Part shown: in pieces, positions 1 through 58,840 of the stretch | How positions within the stretch are numbered: position 1 is the first letter of the stretch | How the letters are laid out: each line of letters starts with the position of its first letter | From: Escherichia coli | Lineage (GTDB): Bacteria > Pseudomonadota > Gammaproteobacteria > Enterobacterales > Enterobacteriaceae | Assembly (NCBI RefSeq): GCF_046105845.1 | Contig: NZ_CP151004.1 | Reading direction: 5' to 3' (one strand) | DNA: 64,000 nt | Translations under genes and position numbers: made by a program | The notes under the pieces: generated by a model | Told to the model about the DNA's origin: nothing | The model's input: only the letters and a program-made list of their open reading frames with translations | Databases searched by the model: none

Positions 1-585
1 CATGCCCTGCGCGATAACGTTGGGCTGGCAAAAGCGGAAGTTATGGCGGAGCGTATTCGCCAGATTAACCCGGAGTGCCGTGTAACGGTGGTGGATGATT
101 TCGTGACGCCGGATAACGTAGCGCAGTATATGAGCGTGGGTTATTCGTACGTGATTGATGCCATTGATAGTGTACGGCCCAAAGCGGCGCTGATTGCTTA
201 TTGTCGGCGCAATAAAATCCCACTGGTCACAACCGGTGGCGCGGGTGGGCAGATTGACCCGACGCAGATTCAGGTTACCGATCTGGCGAAAACGATCCAG
301 GACCCGCTGGCGGCGAAGTTGCGTGAGCGCCTGAAAAGCGATTTTGGCATAGTGAAAAACAGTAAAGGTAAGCTCGGCGTGGATTGCGTGTTCTCTACCG
401 AAGCATTGGTGTACCCGCAGTCAGACGGTACGGTGTGTGCTATGAAAGCCACGGCGGAAGGGCCAAAGCGAATGGATTGTGCATCTGGATTTGGTGCTGC
501 GACGATGGTGACCGCCACCTTTGGTTTTGTTGCGGTTTCTCATGCGCTGAAGAAGATGATGGCGAAAGCGGCCCGTCAGGGGTAA
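1..585 (+). CDS. tcdA: tRNA threonylcarbamoyladenosine dehydratase TcdA/CsdL, C-terminal part (5' end cut by window edge)
   Basis: ORF 43..585 stays open in frame back to base 1 (HALRDNVGLAKAEV-MAERIRQ...); ThiF/MoeB-like E1 fold C-terminus; sits next to csdE-csdA as in E. coli. Confidence 0.8.
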   Translation, partial: HALRDNVGLAKAEVMAERIRQINPECRVTVVDDFVTPDNVAQYMSVGYSYVIDAIDSVRPKAALIAYCRRNKIPLVTTGGAGGQIDPTQIQVTDLAKTIQDPLAAKLRERLKSDFGIVKNSKGKLGVDCVFSTEALVYPQSDGTVCAMKATAEGPKRMDCASGFGAATMVTATFGFVAVSHALKKMMAKAARQG

Positions 586-590
586 ACAAG

Positions 591-627
591 CAGGTCGGAT
601 GCGACGCGAACGTCTTATCCGACCTGG
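591..627. repeat. REP-like palindromic unit downstream of tcdA
   Basis: caggtcggatgcgacgcgaacgtcttatccgacctgg: imperfect palindrome of REP type (GGATGCG...CTTATCC). Confidence 0.5.
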
Positions 628-635
628 TTCTGTGC

Positions 636-1079
636 TTAAACCTGCTTCGCCACAGCGATAATCGCCTCGCTTAACGCATTCAACCCCTGGCTGCGTGAGG
701 CGCTAAGCTGCGCACGCAATCCCAGCTCATCAAACAATGTCAGCGGCGACTGTGCCTGCAATTCGGCGGCGGTTTTCCCCTCAACGGCAGTCAACAACAC
801 CGCCAGCAGGCCGCGCACAATGCGCCCTTCGCTGTCGCCAAAGAAGTGCATTTTACCGTTTTCAGCCATGGTATATCCCAGCCAGACGCGGTTTTCGCAT
901 CCGGCAATCTCTTTAGCCTGTGCTTTTAATTCGTCTGGCAAAGCAGGAAGCTGTTTCCCCAGCATGATCAACTGGCGATATTTATCTTCCCATTGCGTCA
1001 ACGGTGCGAAGGTATTGCGTAACGTTTCTGCGGTTACGGTTGTGCCGAACGGATGTCCGGCGAATTGCGGGTTTGTCAT
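636..1079 (-). CDS. csdE: cysteine desulfurase sulfur acceptor CsdE (SufE-like)
   Basis: 147 aa ORF, SufE-family sequence, abuts csdA stop (coupled). Confidence 0.85.
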
Positions 1080-2284
1080 TAATCCACCAATAATTCCAGC
1101 GCGCGGTCAACGGCATTCACCAGCGCATCCACATCACTCTTTGTATTATATGGCGCAAAAGAGGCGCGCAGTGTGCCGGTTACGCCTAATTCTGCCAGTA
1201 GCGGCTGAGCGCAATGCTGCCCGGCCCGCAGGGCAATACCGTACTCCGCCAGCAGCGTCACCATATCGCTGTGATGAACGCCAGCAAAATCAAAGGCCAG
1301 CAGGCTGGAATCCTGGCAGCGAAATGAGCGGAAGCCAGGACGTTTTGCCAGCGCATCTTCCGCCAGCGTTGCTAAGCTACGGCTCCAGCTTTCGGCCTGG
1401 TTGATATCGTAATCTGCCAGCCATTCCAGCGCCGCGCTTAATCCTATGACACCAGCGACATTTGGCGTTCCAGCTTCCAGTTTCCACGGCGCAGATTGAG
1501 TCGTGAAGCCGTCAAAACTCACTTCGTGAACCATTTTGCCGCCGCCCAGCCAGGGCGACATCGCTTCCAGCAGTTCTGATTTGCCATACAGCACGCCGAT
1601 ACCTGTCGGGCCATACAGTTTGTGACCTGAAAAAGCATAGAAATCAATATCCAGTTGCTGAACATCCGCGGGGAAATGCACTGCCCCCTGAGCACCATCA
1701 ACCATCACCACCATCCCGGCTGAATGAGCAAAGGTAATCGCTCGCGCCAGATCCGGGCAACCGCCAGTGACGTTCGACATTTGTCCCAGAGCAAGAATTC
1801 GACTACGAGGTGTGATCAGTTCTGGCAACAAATCGACATCCGGCAGTCGCTGCGCATTAAGCGGCAATTTCACCACTTTGGCTCCAGTTTGTTGGGCGAC
1901 CATCAGCCAGGGGACAAGGTTAGCGTGGTGTTCTGCCACGCTGACAATAATCTCATCGCCCGGTTGCAGACGCGGACGCGCATAGCATTGTGCCACCATG
2001 TTGATGGATTCAGTGGTGCCGCGCGTCCAGACGATAGTTTTATCATCCGGTGCATTCAGTAATTGCGCCACTTTCTCTCGTGCAGCTTCAAAACGCGCGG
2101 TCAGGCGTTGGGCTTCGGCAAACTGGCTGCGATGGACGTTTCCGGCGCTCAGGCTGTAAAACTGTCGGGTGGCTTTAACCACGGCTTCAGGTTTAAGCGC
2201 GGTCGCGGCGCTGTCGAGATAGACGCCCGCATCCTGAAGTGCGGGAAACTGGGCGCGAAACTGCGCGGGATTAAAAACGTTCAT
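1079..2284 (-). CDS. csdA: cysteine desulfurase CsdA (PLP-dependent, class V aminotransferase fold)
   Basis: ORF 1079..2320 trimmed to the [16 protein letters not shown] start (ATG at 2282-2284 on the minus strand); PLP-lysine motif [11 protein letters not shown]. Confidence 0.9.
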
Positions 2285-2475
2285 GGTACTCCTCGGCTTG
2301 ATGAACCGATCGTGACGCAAAATTCACTTTGATACAAGGAGAGTGCTAACCATCAGAATTATCTGGATATCCTGGCGAAGCCGCGTAAGTAACATATGCT
2401 GAATAGTGTTAGGCGTTAATTTTAGCCTGTTAATCAATACTATTAAGATTTATTAATCGCTTTAAGGAGAAGATG

Positions 2476-2703
2476 ATGAAAAAGACTGCCGCAATTATTT
2501 CTGCCTGTATGCTGACTTTTGCCCTGAGCGCCTGTTCCGGTTCGAACTATGTGATGCACACCAATGACGGACGTACCATCGTCTCTGACGGCAAACCACA
2601 GACTGATAACGATACCGGTATGATTTCGTATAAAGACGCTAATGGCAACAAACAGCAGATCAACCGTACTGACGTGAAAGAGATGGTCGAACTGGATCAG
2701 TAA
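2476..2703 (+). CDS. ygdI: small lipoprotein, DUF903 family
   Basis: [23 protein letters not shown] signal peptide with lipobox (LSAC); 75 aa; RBS aaggaga upstream. Confidence 0.8.
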
Positions 2704-2719
2704 TTCGCGATCGCAAGGT

Positions 2720-2925
2720 AAAAAAAAGCACCGCAATTAGGCGGTGCTACATTAATCACTATGGACAGACAGGGTAAATGTACAGGAAGTGAAAAAAGGT
2801 AGCTTTGCTACCATGGTCTGAATCGCAGACCAATTGCAAACACAACAACACAACATCACAACCGTAAGCCAAAAGTTCACCAGAACACGCATTCCGATAA
2901 AACTTTTCGTTCCGGCTCAGGAAGT
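2720..2925 (-). ncRNA. gcvB: GcvB small regulatory RNA (Hfq-dependent, represses amino-acid/peptide transporter mRNAs)
   Basis: Minus-strand sequence reads ACTTCCTGAGCCGGAACGAAAAGTTTTATCGGAATGCGTGTTCTGGTGAAC...TGTTGTGTTGTTGTGTTTGCAATTGG... (G/U-rich R1 region) and ends in hairpin GCACCGCCTAATTGCGGTGC plus U8; divergent from gcvA. Confidence 0.85.
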
Positions 2926-3053
2926 GCCGCCACTATAGGTATTTGCTGGTAGAAGCTCAACGGACAATTTATAATGGCTCAGATTAAAAAAACTAATAGG
3001 TTACACAGTGTGATCTAATTGTTAAATTCATTTAACATCAAAGTTTAAAAGCC
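2926..3053. promoter_or_regulatory. gcvA/gcvB divergent promoter region
   Basis: 128 bp AT-rich spacer between the gcvB 5' end and the gcvA start codon; known site of GcvA autoregulation and gcvB activation. Confidence 0.5.
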
Positions 3054-3971
3054 ATGTCTAAACGATTACCACCGCTAAATGCCTTACGAGTTTTTGATGC
3101 CGCAGCACGCCATTTAAGTTTCACTCGCGCAGCAGAAGAGCTTTTTGTGACCCAGGCCGCAGTAAGTCATCAAATCAAGTCTCTTGAGGATTTTCTGGGG
3201 CTAAAACTGTTCCGCCGCCGTAATCGTTCACTCCTGCTGACCGAGGAAGGTCAAAGCTATTTCCTCGATATCAAAGAGATATTTTCGCAATTAACCGAAG
3301 CGACGCGTAAACTCCAGGCCCGTAGCGCCAAGGGGGCGTTGACGGTCAGTTTACTCCCCAGTTTCGCCATTCATTGGTTGGTTCCGCGACTTTCCAGCTT
3401 TAATTCAGCTTATCCGGGAATTGACGTTCGAATCCAGGCGGTTGATCGTCAGGAAGATAAGCTGGCGGATGATGTTGATGTGGCGATATTTTATGGTCGG
3501 GGCAACTGGCCGGGGCTACGGGTGGAAAAACTGTACGCCGAGTATTTATTGCCGGTGTGTTCGCCGCTACTGCTGACTGGCGAAAAACCCTTGAAGACCC
3601 CGGAAGATCTGGCTAAACATACGTTATTACATGATGCGTCGCGTCGTGACTGGCAGACATATACTCGCCAATTGGGGTTAAATCATATCAACGTTCAGCA
3701 AGGGCCAATTTTTAGCCATAGCGCCATGGTGCTGCAAGCGGCTATTCACGGGCAGGGAGTGGCGCTGGCAAATAACGTGATGGCGCAATCTGAAATCGAG
3801 GCCGGACGTCTTGTTTGCCCGTTTAATGATGTTCTGGTCAGTAAAAATGCTTTTTATCTGGTTTGTCATGACAGTCAGGCAGAACTGGGTAAAATAGCCG
3901 CCTTTCGCCAATGGATCCTGGCGAAAGCCGCTGCTGAACAAGAAAAATTCCGCTTTCGTTATGAACAATAA
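3054..3971 (+). CDS. gcvA: LysR-family transcriptional regulator GcvA (glycine cleavage system activator)
   Basis: 305 aa; N-terminal LysR HTH (LRVFDAAARHLSFTRAAEELFVTQAAVSHQIKSLE). Confidence 0.9.
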   Translation: MSKRLPPLNALRVFDAAARHLSFTRAAEELFVTQAAVSHQIKSLEDFLGLKLFRRRNRSLLLTEEGQSYFLDIKEIFSQLTEATRKLQARSAKGALTVSLLPSFAIHWLVPRLSSFNSAYPGIDVRIQAVDRQEDKLADDVDVAIFYGRGNWPGLRVEKLYAEYLLPVCSPLLLTGEKPLKTPEDLAKHTLLHDASRRDWQTYTRQLGLNHINVQQGPIFSHSAMVLQAAIHGQGVALANNVMAQSEIEAGRLVCPFNDVLVSKNAFYLVCHDSQAELGKIAAFRQWILAKAAAEQEKFRFRYEQ

Positions 3972-3989
3972 TTTACGTAGGGTACGACC

Positions 3990-4385
3990 ATGACCAGCCG
4001 TTTTATGCTGATTTTCGCCGCCATTAGCGGCTTCATTTTTGTGGCTCTGGGCGCTTTTGGCGCGCATGTGTTAAGTAAAACCATGGGGGCCGTTGAGATG
4101 GGCTGGATCCAGACCGGTCTCGAATATCAGGCGTTCCATACGCTGGCGATCTTAGGTCTGGCGGTGGCAATGCAGCGTCGCATCAGTATCTGGTTTTACT
4201 GGAGTAGCGTTTTCCTCGCGTTAGGCACGGTGCTGTTCAGCGGCAGCCTTTATTGCCTGGCGCTGTCCCATCTGCGTTTGTGGGCATTTGTCACACCGGT
4301 TGGTGGCGTGAGCTTCCTCGCGGGCTGGGCGTTAATGTTAGTTGGTGCTATCCGTTTAAAGCGCAAGGGCGTAAGTCATGAATAA
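3990..4385 (+). CDS. ygdD: inner membrane protein, DUF423 family
   Basis: 131 aa hydrophobic ORF with about four TM segments; overlaps rlmM start by 8 bp. Confidence 0.85.
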
Positions 4386-5478
4386 GGTTGTATTGCTGTG
4401 CCGTCCGGGCTTTGAAAAAGAGTGCGCCGCAGAAATTACCGATAAAGCCGGCCAGCGGGAAATTTTCGGTTTTGCCCGCGTGAAAGAGAATGCGGGTTAT
4501 GTCATTTATGAATGTTATCAACCTGATGATGGCGATAAGTTAATCCGTGAGCTGCCGTTCAGTTCATTAATTTTTGCCCGCCAGTGGTTTGTGGTGGGGG
4601 AACTCCTGCAGCATTTGCCGCCAGAAGATCGTATTACCCCCATTGTCGGCATGTTACAGGGTGTAGTAGAGAAGGGCGGTGAACTGCGTGTTGAAGTTGC
4701 CGATACCAACGAAAGCAAAGAGTTGCTGAAATTCTGCCGTAAATTCACCGTGCCGCTACGCGCTGCCTTGCGCGATGCGGGTGTGCTGGCGAACTATGAA
4801 ACGCCGAAGCGTCCGGTTGTGCATGTATTCTTTATTGCACCAGGCTGCTGCTATACCGGTTACTCATACAGCAACAATAATTCGCCGTTCTATATGGGCA
4901 TTCCGCGCCTGAAATTTCCGGCAGATGCGCCGAGTCGTTCCACGCTCAAACTGGAAGAGGCATTTCATGTGTTTATTCCTGCGGATGAGTGGGATGAACG
5001 CCTGGCGAACGGGATGTGGGCGGTGGATTTAGGCGCTTGCCCAGGCGGCTGGACCTACCAACTGGTGAAGCGCAACATGTGGGTTTATTCCGTCGACAAC
5101 GGCCCGATGGCGCAAAGTCTGATGGATACCGGACAGGTGACGTGGCTGCGGGAAGACGGTTTCAAATTCCGTCCGACACGCAGCAATATCTCCTGGATGG
5201 TATGCGATATGGTTGAAAAACCGGCGAAAGTTGCGGCATTGATGGCGCAGTGGCTGGTTAATGGCTGGTGCCGTGAAACCATTTTCAACCTCAAACTGCC
5301 GATGAAAAAACGCTACGAAGAAGTGTCACACAATCTGGCGTATATTCAGGCACAGCTTGATGAACATGGCATAAATGCTCAGATCCAGGCGCGGCAGTTA
5401 TATCACGATCGCGAAGAAGTGACGGTGCACGTCCGCCGTATCTGGGCTGCGGTGGGTGGTCGTCGCGACGAGCGATAA
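4378..5478 (+). CDS. rlmM: 23S rRNA 2'-O-ribose C2498 methyltransferase RlmM
   Basis: 366 aa; SAM-dependent methyltransferase region ([14 protein letters not shown]). Confidence 0.9.
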
Positions 5479-5521
5479 CAGGCAAGGCCGGGGCGTCGTC
5501 TCCGGCCTGCTACCCTTTCCG

Positions 5522-6253
5522 TCAGGCTGTTACCAAAGAAGTTGCAACCTGGCGCTCATCAGAAATAATGTGCGTGACCTCATCCAGATGCCCGATGCGG
5601 GCTTCCCCTGAACGATTAAATTTACTTTTATCAATCAATAACAACGATTGCGCGGCGCGTTTTAATAGCATTGATTTGTAATCAGCGTTGATGGCATTGG
5701 AGTCCCACAGTGCGCCGCTGCTATCGATCCCTTCACAAGAAAAAATAAACAGATCGATTTCCAGCGATTTAAGTTGGGAAATCAGCGAGGGATTGACGTA
5801 ACAGCCATATTTGCGCTCAAGTGTGCCGCCGGAACTGATCAGTTGAATGCGTTCGCGTTTACCGAGTTCATGGCAAATCGGATGGCTATTGGTGAAGACC
5901 TGGATGTTGATGTCAGGCAACTGGCGTGCCAGATACCAGCAGGTTGAACTGGCGTCTAAGGCTATTACCATCCCTTCTTCAATCCACGCGAGCGCCTCGC
6001 GCGCGATATCTGCTTTATGCGCATAATGGCTTTTCAGCCGGATGTGAAAGGGATCGCCACTGTCTTGATTTTGACGGTGGATATATTTAGCGCGCCCATG
6101 ATTGCGCAGAATTTTACCCTGCGTCTGTAATTCATTGAGATCGCGACGAATGGTTTCTTTACTGACCTTTAGCTGTTCAGAGAGAGCTTCCGTGGTCAGG
6201 CTGGTATGGTTCAGCAGCAGGTCGACTATCGCTTGCTGGCGTGCCGCTTTCAT
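5522..6253 (-). CDS. fucR: DeoR-family activator of the fucose regulon FucR
   Basis: ORF 5522..6262 trimmed to MKAARQQAIVDLL start; N-terminal DeoR HTH, C-terminal sugar-phosphate binding domain. Confidence 0.85.
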   Translation of the reverse strand: MKAARQQAIVDLLLNHTSLTTEALSEQLKVSKETIRRDLNELQTQGKILRNHGRAKYIHRQNQDSGDPFHIRLKSHYAHKADIAREALAWIEEGMVIALDASSTCWYLARQLPDINIQVFTNSHPICHELGKRERIQLISSGGTLERKYGCYVNPSLISQLKSLEIDLFIFSCEGIDSSGALWDSNAINADYKSMLLKRAAQSLLLIDKSKFNRSGEARIGHLDEVTHIISDERQVATSLVTA

Positions 6254-6310
6254 ATTTTTCACCCCATCATTCGATAACCGCCCGCGTCATGCGGGCGTAC
6301 CGGTATGAGA

Positions 6311-6733
6311 TTACGGTGTTACCCCTTTTTTTAAAAGAATATTCCCGTACTTCGCTCGTTCGCCTGTGATAACGATCGCAAAGGCTTTTTGCGCCCGTTC
6401 ATAAAACGCAAAACGATTGATGCGGATGATGTCAGGACACGGGGCTTGTAGTGAAAGCGCATTACGGTAACGTCGTTCTACTTCAGGATCGAGAGTGTCA
6501 CCTTCTACCGCCGCCATCATCACCAGCGGCGGTGCATAACTGTCCAGTTCAAATAACGGGATAATCGCCTGGAGCAAGTCGCTCACCAACAGGCCATCAG
6601 CGCGGATCACCTGCGGTCCCATCGAATGGGCGGGAAAGTGAGCATCGGAAAAAATAATTTCATCTCCATGCCCCATCTCTGCCAGCACTTTCAATAGTTC
6701 GGGAGAAATTAACGGCGAAATTGTTTTCAGCAT
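6311..6733 (-). CDS. fucU: L-fucose mutarotase FucU (RbsD/FucU family)
   Basis: 140 aa, RbsD/FucU fold; last gene of fucPIKU. Confidence 0.9.
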
Positions 6734-6734
6734 T

Positions 6735-8153
6735 TCACACTTCCTCTATAAATTCAGGTTCAGTTTGCGGGTAGAAATAACGGTACTGATAATGAATCTG
6801 CGCGCGGGCTTCTTCCGGGCTGTTAAATTCCCCTACGCCATACCAACCGAACAGCGCAGCTCCTGCGACGGTCGTTTCTGCGTCGTCGAGAACTTTTACC
6901 GGAATATCAAGCATATTGGCTTTAATCTGATTCCACAATGTGTTGCGACTTCCTCCGCCGACTAACAATAATTCAGAGGCTTTAAAGTGCCCGATTTTTT
7001 CCAGCATCTGTAGATTGCGCTGTAATTGCGCGGTTAACCCTTCCAGCGCCGCGCGATAGAAATGCCCCCGCGTGGTATTAAGCGTCACTCCTTGCCAGCC
7101 AGCGTTCTGACACGACAATAAATCACACTGCATTTTCACGCCATCCGCGCCAGGCGCGATCAGACGAGCCTCTTCAATCAACATTTGCCAGGGAGTTTCA
7201 GCCGTCCAGAACAGTTTTCTCACCCATTCCAGCACGCCGGATGCCAGCCATTGCATACCTGGGTTATACAACCCTGCCTGACTATCCAGTTCGCAGGTGG
7301 AACCGGCATACTGACTTAACAGCGAAGTATCAACCTGGGCGCTACGGACCATTAAAATTTCCCATGTACCGGAAGAGAGCACGGGTTCATTTTGTTCAGC
7401 ACCAGCGCCAAAAAGGGCGAACTGGGTATCGTGACCTGCGGAAATCACCGGTATGCCAACGGGTAAGCCGAGCATTGCTGCGGCGCTGTTCTGTAACGTA
7501 CCAATCTGTTCACCCGCCTCCACCAGACGAGGGAAGAGTCGGCGTGGAATACCGGTGGCGTGTAAAATTTGCGGACTGAAATCGCGTTGCTGGATATCCA
7601 GCATCTGGCTGGTTCCGGCCATCGTGATATCAGTAGTGAATTCGCCGGTTAAACGGTGGTTAATCAGCGACGAAATAAAGAGCCAGGCGTGCGCGCGTTC
7701 CAGCAGTTGTGGATGATTTTCTTTCAACCACACCAACTTATATAACGTATTGAAACTAAAGGCTCCGACTCCAGAAATAGCCTGCAACTGCTGTGCGGAG
7801 ATCAACCGTTCAATATTGTCCATTACCGCTGCTGTTCGCGGACATTTCCAGCTAATGATCGGATAGAGCAGATTGCCTTGCTTATCTACCAGAGCGCCAT
7901 CCACACCAAAGGTGGTGACGGCGATACCGCGGATGTGGCAATCAGTCAGTTCACTATTGATTTGCCGACAGCAATCAGCAAAGCGTTGCAAAATGGCGTC
8001 TAAAGACCACTGGTGCCAGGTGTTGTTTTCCATCGCGATATCGCTGGCATTAGGCGTTGAGGCGCGGGCAACAATTTTTCCCTGCCGATTAACCGCGATG
8101 GCCCTGACATTGGTCGCGCCACAGTCGAGTACCAGGATAACTTCTTGTTTCAT
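6735..8153 (-). CDS. fucK: L-fuculokinase FucK (FGGY carbohydrate kinase)
   Basis: ORF 6735..8183 trimmed to [17 protein letters not shown] start; FGGY kinase N-terminal motif. Confidence 0.85.
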
Positions 8154-21144: not shown

Positions 21145-21510
21145 GTCGACAGGGAGTCAGACAACGAAGTGAACATCAGGATGATGACACTTCTGAAGGA
21201 CACACCAGGATGGTGTTTCAGGGAAAGGCTTCTGGATGAAGCGAAGAGGATGACGCAGGACGCGTTAAAGGACACCTCCAGGATGGAGAATGAGAACCGG
21301 TCAGGATGATTCGGTGGGTCAGGAAGGCCAGGGACACTTCAGGATGAAGTATCACATCGGGGTGGTGTGAGCAGGAAGCAATAGTTCAGGATGAACGATT
21401 GGCCGCAAGGCCAGAGGAAAAGTTGTCAAGGATGAGCAGGGAGCAACAAAAGTAGCTGGAATGCTGCGAAACGAACCGGGAGCACTGTGAATACAGTGCT
21501 CCCTTTTTTT
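21145..21510 (+). ncRNA. csrB: CsrB, CsrA-sequestering small RNA
   Basis: Starts GTCGACAGGGAGTCAGACAACGAAGTGAACATCAGGATGATGACAC; many CAGGATG/AGGA motifs in predicted loops; ends with a terminator. Confidence 0.9.
21478..21510 (+). terminator. rho-independent terminator of csrB
   Basis: gggagcactgtgaatacagtgctccc hairpin followed by ttttttt. Confidence 0.8.
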
Positions 21511-21555
21511 ATTCCTGCTATCCTTCGCGGCAGTTTTTCTTATTGAGGTTGCTTT

Positions 21556-58482: not shown

Positions 58483-58840
58483 ATATTGCCGGATAAATTA
58501 AACGCCTCTGTCAGAAATGATGGGGGCGTTTTTATTTTGCGAGCAGCATTCCTGATTTTAAACGTGAACGCCGCTGGAAGAATCAACAGGTATATAATGG
58601 TGTCGGGTGCTTGAGGCTGTCTGGCGTTAAGCATTCGCGAGGTTCCAGATGGACAAAAGCCCCAGGCGATATTTCTATCAACCTGAGGCCAGCGTTCGAA
58701 CCCAAACAATTCGAATGTTAGTCTCTTCTTTGCAGGGAGGCAAGACATGTGTATATCACTGTAATTCGATATTTATGAGCAGCATCGAAAAATAGTCCAC
58801 TGATATCATCGATAATACTAAAAAAACAGGGAGGCTATTA

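Follow-up and report, generated by a model that had tools for sequence, protein, structure and literature searches.

In the published account (PMC4474525), GcvB is described as a conserved, roughly 200-nt, Hfq-dependent sRNA that is abundant in nutrient-rich media and that represses many mRNAs for amino-acid/peptide transporters and biosynthesis, including dpp and opp; according to the same source, gcvB is activated by GcvA and GcvR in response to glycine. GcvB acts on its targets by base pairing close to their Shine-Dalgarno region (PMC3879156). In Escherichia coli K-12 the gene is annotated as an ncRNA (b4443, "small regulatory RNA GcvB"; NC_000913.3, 2942696..2942901) between gcvA and ygdI.

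As the 3' end of gcvB faces that of ygdI, described ways in which convergent or structured transcripts end are also relevant here. Ju et al. (2019) reportedly defined a class of bidirectional terminators by SEnd-seq. For the bidirectional terminators seen by SEnd-seq, a collision model has been proposed, in which the terminators of convergent pairs are unlike intrinsic ones and are Rho-independent (bioRxiv 10.1101/2022.10.23.513370). In the 3' end table of Adams et al. (PMC7815308), it is common for the 3' ends of two convergent genes, e.g., can/hpt, to overlap at a single hairpin. Finally, Dar and Sorek (2018; PMC6061677) report that Rho-dependent transcripts have precise steady-state 3' ends right after stable stem-loops that lack a U-rich tail.

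The locus studied here was found in a window of 64,000 nt (i.e., the whole stretch of E. coli DNA that was analysed). A first-pass annotation, made from the sequence alone, had recognised GcvB on the minus strand at positions 2720-2925 and had proposed an Rfam scan as the check, with the lack of an RF00022 match to count against the assignment. When window positions 1..8000 were scanned against all 4227 Rfam families, RF00022 (GcvB) was the sole match at the gathering threshold. This match has exactly the proposed coordinates (2925..2720, minus strand) and covers model positions 1-204 of 204, with a score of 199 bits as compared to a gathering score of 42 (E = 1.4e-47); it was recovered again in a scan of the whole window. 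The minus strand of 2720..2925 reads ACUUCCUGAGCCGG...GCGGUGCUUUUUUUU. Moreover, 281 nt comprising the gene, its promoter and the end of ygdI are 100% identical to the gcvB region (b4443) of K-12 MG1655, and this alignment was used to convert coordinates (K-12 position = 2942696 + (2925 - window position)). Along the window, the genes run csdA(-), ygdI(+), gcvB(-), gcvA(+), ygdD(+), rlmM(+), and the features at the centre of the analysis are as follows.

2720..2925, minus strand: gcvB, 206-nt small regulatory RNA (+1 at 2925, 3' end at 2720; RF00022 match and identity to K-12 b4443)
2476..2703, plus strand: ygdI CDS, 75-aa DUF903 lipoprotein, convergent with gcvB (ORF list, RefSeq and K-12 annotation)
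2704..2751, plus strand: ygdI 3' UTR, with its end 3 nt beyond the hairpin stem (Term-seq of Adams et al. 2021)
3054..3971, plus strand: gcvA CDS, LysR-type regulator GcvA, divergent from gcvB (ORF list, annotation)

The mechanically called ygdI ORF begins one ATG earlier, at 2473, and its stop codon is at 2701..2703. Divergent gcvA lies 128 nt from the gcvB +1; gcvA was also divergent at all loci of the comparative survey (see below) that had sufficient upstream flank, among the matches listed. Compared to K-12 GcvB (b4443, RF00022), the present copy thus has the same sequence over 281 nt, the same 206-nt length, the same divergent gcvA and convergent ygdI, and the same series of elements (stem-loop 1 [SL1], R1, SL2, SL3, R2, SL4 and terminator); only the annotation differs. 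The minus strand of 2720..2925 is the known E. coli sRNA GcvB, identical to the K-12 reference, and as such it is already known and ordinary.

Of 5426 complete E. coli genomes, 5425 gave a match to a 701-nt query spanning this locus, 5385 of them at 99% identity or higher. A chance resemblance to GcvB or a decayed remnant, with no functional GcvB gene at 2720..2925, has a negligible probability, given the E value of 1.4e-47 over the full model length, the near-universal presence of the locus in E. coli, and the 100% identity to an experimentally studied K-12 gene, promoter and terminator included. One of the 5426 genomes had no match to the 701-nt query, and one matching place was on a plasmid. 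In NZ_AP042483.1 (E. coli OkiPb01677) the query was split over two places, the best of which covered only 58%; this suggests an insertion or rearrangement that splits the ygdI-gcvB-gcvA region in that genome.

That GcvB has no entry in the ORF track, as had been remarked, is explained by its being an RNA gene that is non-coding and also unannotated in PGAP RefSeq records. For example, the PGAP record NZ_CP025849.1 (1501..2201) lists ygdI and gcvA and carries no gcvB feature, while its DNA is 100% identical; among the records compared, only the curated K-12 record has an ncRNA gcvB. Two minus-strand ORFs in the region were set aside as assumed six-frame by-products: a 46-aa ORF at 2752..2892 that starts in SL1 and spans R1, where the RNA gene explains the region, and a 97-aa ORF with a TTG start at 2443..2736 that is antisense to ygdI, where ygdI does so.

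The predicted fold of the full RNA has a free energy of -62.1 kcal/mol (z = -3.6), a stability reached by none of 200 shuffled sequences, and its stems agree with the Rfam consensus. The elements of the RNA, all on the minus strand, are given below.

2865..2919, minus strand: stem-loop 1 (nt 7-61), base-paired both in the MFE fold and in the structure of the Rfam consensus
2837..2863, minus strand: R1, seed region, single-stranded and G/U-rich (nt 63-89; GGUUGUGAUGUUGUGUUGUUGUGUUUG), without pairs in the Rfam consensus, with the seed role taken from the literature (PMC4474525, PMC3879156)
2832..2814, minus strand: stem-loop 2 (Rfam structure, MFE fold)
2812..2798, minus strand: stem-loop 3, which with U6 at 2797..2792 makes up an internal terminator-like site (Rfam, MFE, and terminator scan, which reported TTTTTT)
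2791..2782, minus strand: R2, CACUUCCUGU, highly conserved and unpaired positions of the Rfam consensus
about 2781..2749, minus strand: stem-loop 4, highly conserved positions of the Rfam consensus
2720..2748, minus strand: Rho-independent terminator with an 8-bp stem (AGCACCGC/GCGGUGCU), a 6-nt loop and a U tail to 2720 (terminator scan, fold)

Both of the segments by which the GcvB family is recognised, i.e., R1 and R2, are present and unpaired in the Rfam consensus line. The G/U-rich string quoted in the first-pass annotation (TGTTGTGTTGTTGTGTTTG) is located within R1 (minus strand 2855..2837, GcvB nt 71-89). An 8-nt insertion (UUGUGUUG) sets R1 apart from the family consensus, and K-12 has the same insertion. 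The RNA ends in a Rho-independent terminator with a long U tail, the 3' module of Hfq-dependent sRNAs; its hairpin, AGCACCGC-CUAAUU-GCGGUGCU at 2748..2727, is directly followed by TTTTTTT, and the hairpin-plus-U8 originally described is found here provided that the U closing the stem is counted.

As the sequence is identical to that of the studied gene, the known mechanism of GcvB carries over directly to 2720..2925. Accounts of the identical K-12 and Salmonella gene (PMC4474525) would accordingly extend expression as an RNA of roughly 200 nt, Hfq binding and the repression of dppA, oppA and other targets to this copy. According to the literature, the single-stranded, G/U-rich R1 pairs with C/A-rich sequence close to where ribosomes bind on target mRNAs, and the targets are repressed when nutrients are rich.

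Candidate control elements upstream of the gcvB +1 are the following.

2932..2960, minus strand: putative sigma-70-type promoter, -35 TTGAGC (2960..2955), 17-nt spacer, -10 TATAGT (2937..2932) (consensus scan, 9/12 matches)
2983..2997, no strand assigned: ATTA-N7-TAAT dyad (LysR-type T-N11-A box), centred at about -65 from the gcvB +1 (read from the sequence)

The -10 hexamer ends 6 nt upstream of the gcvB +1, and, judged by this position relative to the annotated 5' end, TTGAGC-17-TATAGT is plausibly the gcvB promoter. CTAAT motifs occur at 2993..2997 and 3015..3019 in the gcvA-gcvB divergent control region, and the ATTA-N7-TAAT dyad represents a plausible candidate GcvA-binding site, an assignment that draws on what is generally known of LysR-type regulators and on the activation of gcvB by GcvA (PMC4474525). 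Transcription of gcvB proceeds leftward (minus strand), probably from a sigma-70 promoter, with a control region in common with divergent gcvA.

The first-pass annotation had also placed a GC hairpin at 2728..2750, immediately downstream of the ygdI stop, and had suggested that it may terminate both transcripts. Its placement was right to within 2-3 nt (the actual span is 2727..2748), and the hairpin is indeed downstream of ygdI, with the stop codon at 2701..2703 lying 23 nt ahead of the stem. A stable GC-rich stem is predicted for both transcripts, as the same 8-bp stem folds on either strand, with -16.2 kcal/mol (z = -4.5) for a 45-nt minus-strand segment and -15.6 kcal/mol (z = -5.2) for a 46-nt plus-strand segment. 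A U-rich tract, on the other hand, is present in one direction only; the minus-strand stem is followed by TTTTTTT, whereas the plus-strand tail is ACAUUAAU in RNA (ACATTAAT in DNA), with 3 T in 8 nt and no U-tract. The terminator scan of the plus strand found no terminator-like site for ygdI, and a simple symmetric bidirectional intrinsic terminator was set aside on that account. The locus also departs from the described bidirectional terminators in that A-tract, stem and U-tract come together in the gcvB direction only, while the ygdI direction has no U-tract.

Published Term-seq data place the 3' ends of both RNAs at this hairpin. Position 51 of the 61-nt strings in Supplementary file 1 of Adams et al. 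2021 marks the 3' end, as the row for sgrS confirmed. The dominant ygdI 3' end, a "primary" end that is also classed as "antisense" to gcvB, is at K-12 2942870 (-), i.e., window 2751, with 36,630 reads in LB at OD 0.4 and 441,780 reads in M63 at OD 0.4, and the GcvB 3' end is at K-12 2942894 (+), i.e., window 2727, with 134,815 reads in LB 0.4 (PMC7815308). The overlap of the two RNAs is 25 nt with the Term-seq ends and 32 nt with the annotated end of GcvB. As in convergent hairpin pairs such as can/hpt, two 3' ends flank one palindromic stem, with an overlap of about 25-32 nt. In M63, the GcvB terminator peak is absent from the curated ends, and the lone GcvB end is minor and internal (K-12 2942763, window 2858, in R1; PMC7815308). 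As far as the location of both 3' ends is concerned, these data uphold the suggestion of one hairpin that may end both transcripts. For ygdI, with no U-tract on the plus strand, the hairpin is a candidate terminator; Term-seq reports steady-state 3' ends, which can come from processing, and these data show position rather than mechanism.

The Term-seq end of GcvB at 2727 is the first U of the U-run, and the annotated RNA extends 7 nt further, to 2720; this shows that trimming or library effects shift ends in this dataset. The GcvB ends at 2727 and 2858 are suggestive of trimming or cleavage products. On the gcvB strand, the same study reports a strong Rho termination region antisense inside ygdI (K-12 2943134 (+), about window 2487 (-); score 10.25, significance 2e-71; PMC7815308), so that transcription escaping the GcvB terminator appears to be halted by Rho there.

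Overlapping 3' ends (25-32 nt) at a convergent pair are what would be expected if gcvB and ygdI polymerases met head-on and dislodged each other. We consider this improbable here, since the ygdI end at 2751 is stronger in M63 glucose (441,780 vs 36,630 reads), the medium in which the GcvB terminator peak is uncurated; persistence of the ygdI end in M63 implies that heavy opposing transcription of gcvB is seemingly not required. The GcvB side, in addition, is a textbook intrinsic terminator. Overall, the collision model is disfavoured for this locus.

Alternatively, the hairpin could act as a true bidirectional intrinsic terminator, with RNA polymerase on ygdI being released at the GcvB hairpin despite the poor U-tract. 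The equally stable 8-bp stem in the plus strand, the presence of the dominant ygdI end 3 nt beyond this stem in two conditions, and the frequency with which convergent pairs (e.g., can/hpt) end at one hairpin in the Adams table would all agree with such release. However, a tail with only 3 U in 8 nt and an empty plus-strand terminator scan are difficult to reconcile with it. At intrinsic terminators the usual release point is farther than 3 nt from the stem; the ygdI end is nearer than that, and an RNA released in this way would still need trimming. Release at the hairpin is possible in our judgement, though on balance we doubt it.

The ygdI end could also be a product of processing, whereby ygdI transcription reads through into antisense gcvB and stops downstream, most plausibly via Rho acting on the antisense of R1, after which exonucleases trim the RNA in the 3'-to-5' direction back to the stem. 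An end just 3 nt beyond the stem fits such trimming, and the anatomy as a whole fits the ends described by Dar and Sorek (PMC6061677), i.e., a precise end after a stable stem without a U-tract, with a C-rich, G-poor tract downstream. This tract, the complement of R1, is a 27-nt G-free, C/A-rich run on the plus strand at 2837..2863, where C minus G reaches +12 per 40 nt (99.5th percentile of the window background); it is a plausible candidate rut element, judged by base composition. However, Supplementary file 2 of Adams et al., which gives only the top position in each 800-nt window, has no Rho region on the ygdI strand here, and the first 40 nt beyond the hairpin (2754..2793) are rich in G, with C minus G between -5 and -9, as opposed to the mild enrichment of C over G downstream of the ends described previously (PMC6061677). 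The ygdI stem thus differs from the protective stems of Dar and Sorek in being followed first by G-rich sequence, and Rho dependence of ygdI is a candidate property. We hold the sequence of read-through, Rho-mediated stop and trimming only tentatively, at somewhat short of an even chance; in general terms, we regard trimming of ygdI, with the stem as a protective barrier, as no less likely than termination at the hairpin.

We also assessed how the hairpin is conserved with and without ygdI. GcvB loci were retrieved from species-representative genomes with a pattern on R2 and SL4 of GcvB, which gave at least 120 loci, at least 119 of them Enterobacterales GcvB; the set analysed comprised 114 Enterobacterales loci among the matches listed. 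One match (L090, in the Candidatus Saccharibacteria MAG CAMLQK010000002.1) was exact over the 21-base pattern and had no GcvB hairpin downstream; it was judged spurious and dropped, as a pattern with 21 fixed bases and 7 gap lengths should match about once by chance when both strands of 298 Gb are searched.

The core stem GCACCGC/GCGGTGC was present in 112 of the 114 loci listed, and the two exceptions were a double compensatory change (ACACCGC/GCGGTGT) and a single G-U pair. Across these 114 listed loci the hairpin loop varied and an optional ninth pair switched between A-T and T-A, while a GcvB U-run of at least 7 was found in all of them (114/114 among the matches listed). Convergent ygdI was present within 400 nt in 78 of the 114 loci listed, with a median gap of 24 nt. 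In 61 of these 78 loci (among the matches listed) ygdI was no more than 40 nt from the stem, a proximity that would be in line with release of ygdI transcripts at the hairpin. The remaining 36 of the 114 listed loci had no convergent ygdI and an unchanged hairpin; they are distributed as follows.

Loci without convergent ygdI (among the matches listed): Photorhabdus, Xenorhabdus, Proteus, Providencia, Morganella, Moellerella, Edwardsiella and one Serratia (S. oryzae)
Further loci without convergent ygdI (among the matches listed): two MAGs (one with no label beyond Enterobacteriaceae, one Pluralibacter) and three isolates from Enterobacteriaceae genera (Kluyvera, Raoultella, Enterobacter)

On the opposite strand, the 8 nt after the stem contained 1-3 T in all of the loci (114/114 among the matches listed), and in the Enterobacteriaceae the sequence of this tail is fixed by SL4 of GcvB. 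That the opposite tail is never U-rich in the 114 listed loci, its sequence being set by SL4, and that the hairpin is just as conserved in loci without ygdI both speak against a true bidirectional terminator. As the hairpin is equally kept without ygdI and no opposite tail exceeds 3 T in 8 nt, the hairpin is GcvB's own terminator; as the tail stays at or below this number throughout the 114 listed loci, nothing in them points to selection for a U-tract or for termination of ygdI transcripts. On this comparative evidence, GcvB alone accounts for the conservation of the hairpin.

Overall, we are highly confident in an explanation that combines the identity and anatomy of gcvB, its intrinsic terminator, and a hairpin that sets the steady-state 3' end of ygdI. 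In the gcvB direction, the hairpin serves in termination and 3' protection and presumably as the Hfq-binding 3' module. As ygdI converges on the same palindrome, an equally stable stem forms in the ygdI mRNA and fixes its steady-state 3' end 3 nt downstream; for ygdI, the hairpin is either a non-canonical terminator of low strength or a stem that protects the 3' end once trimming has reached it. In the literature searched, no in vitro termination or read-through data were found for this hairpin in both directions, and a search for GcvB together with bidirectional terminators yielded unrelated uses only, e.g., a synthetic terminator in a reporter plasmid. In the papers naming both gcvB and ygdI, ygdI figures solely as a neighbouring gene or as the place where a marker was inserted, and neither gene is present in the TERMITe supplements.

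GcvB is among the best-studied bacterial sRNAs, and a copy identical to the reference has little discovery value. The practical value of the finding concerns annotation, as scans that use CDS tracks or PGAP records repeatedly flag gcvB as unannotated. Another RNA gene in the window, a full-length CsrB sRNA at 21154..21513 (+) (RF00018, 382.9 bits, E = 2e-111), is likewise missed by a CDS-only track. The window also contains a sok-type antitoxin RNA at 58605..58761 (+) (RF01794, full model, 103.7 bits as compared to a gathering score of 59), a match that implies a hok/sok-like type I toxin-antitoxin locus there.

It is tempting to hypothesize that the convergent layout is itself functional, with antisense cross-talk between ygdI and gcvB that is tuned by the poor U-tract on the ygdI side. 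This reading, for which the present analysis provides no positive support, seems very improbable, given that the dominant ygdI end is at the hairpin and that the hairpin and R1 are equally conserved in the 36 listed loci without ygdI. If it were true, ygdI read-through RNA would carry a perfect C/A-rich complement of the R1 seed and could act as a cis antisense sponge or interfere with the transcription of gcvB; conversely, read-through from gcvB would run antisense across ygdI until the Rho stop (about 2487), and the poor U-tract on the ygdI side would set the amount of antisense RNA. The hairpin common to gcvB and ygdI is a routine case of convergent genes with RNA 3' ends at a single palindrome, and it would become interesting only if read-through in one direction or the other were shown to regulate GcvB or ygdI.
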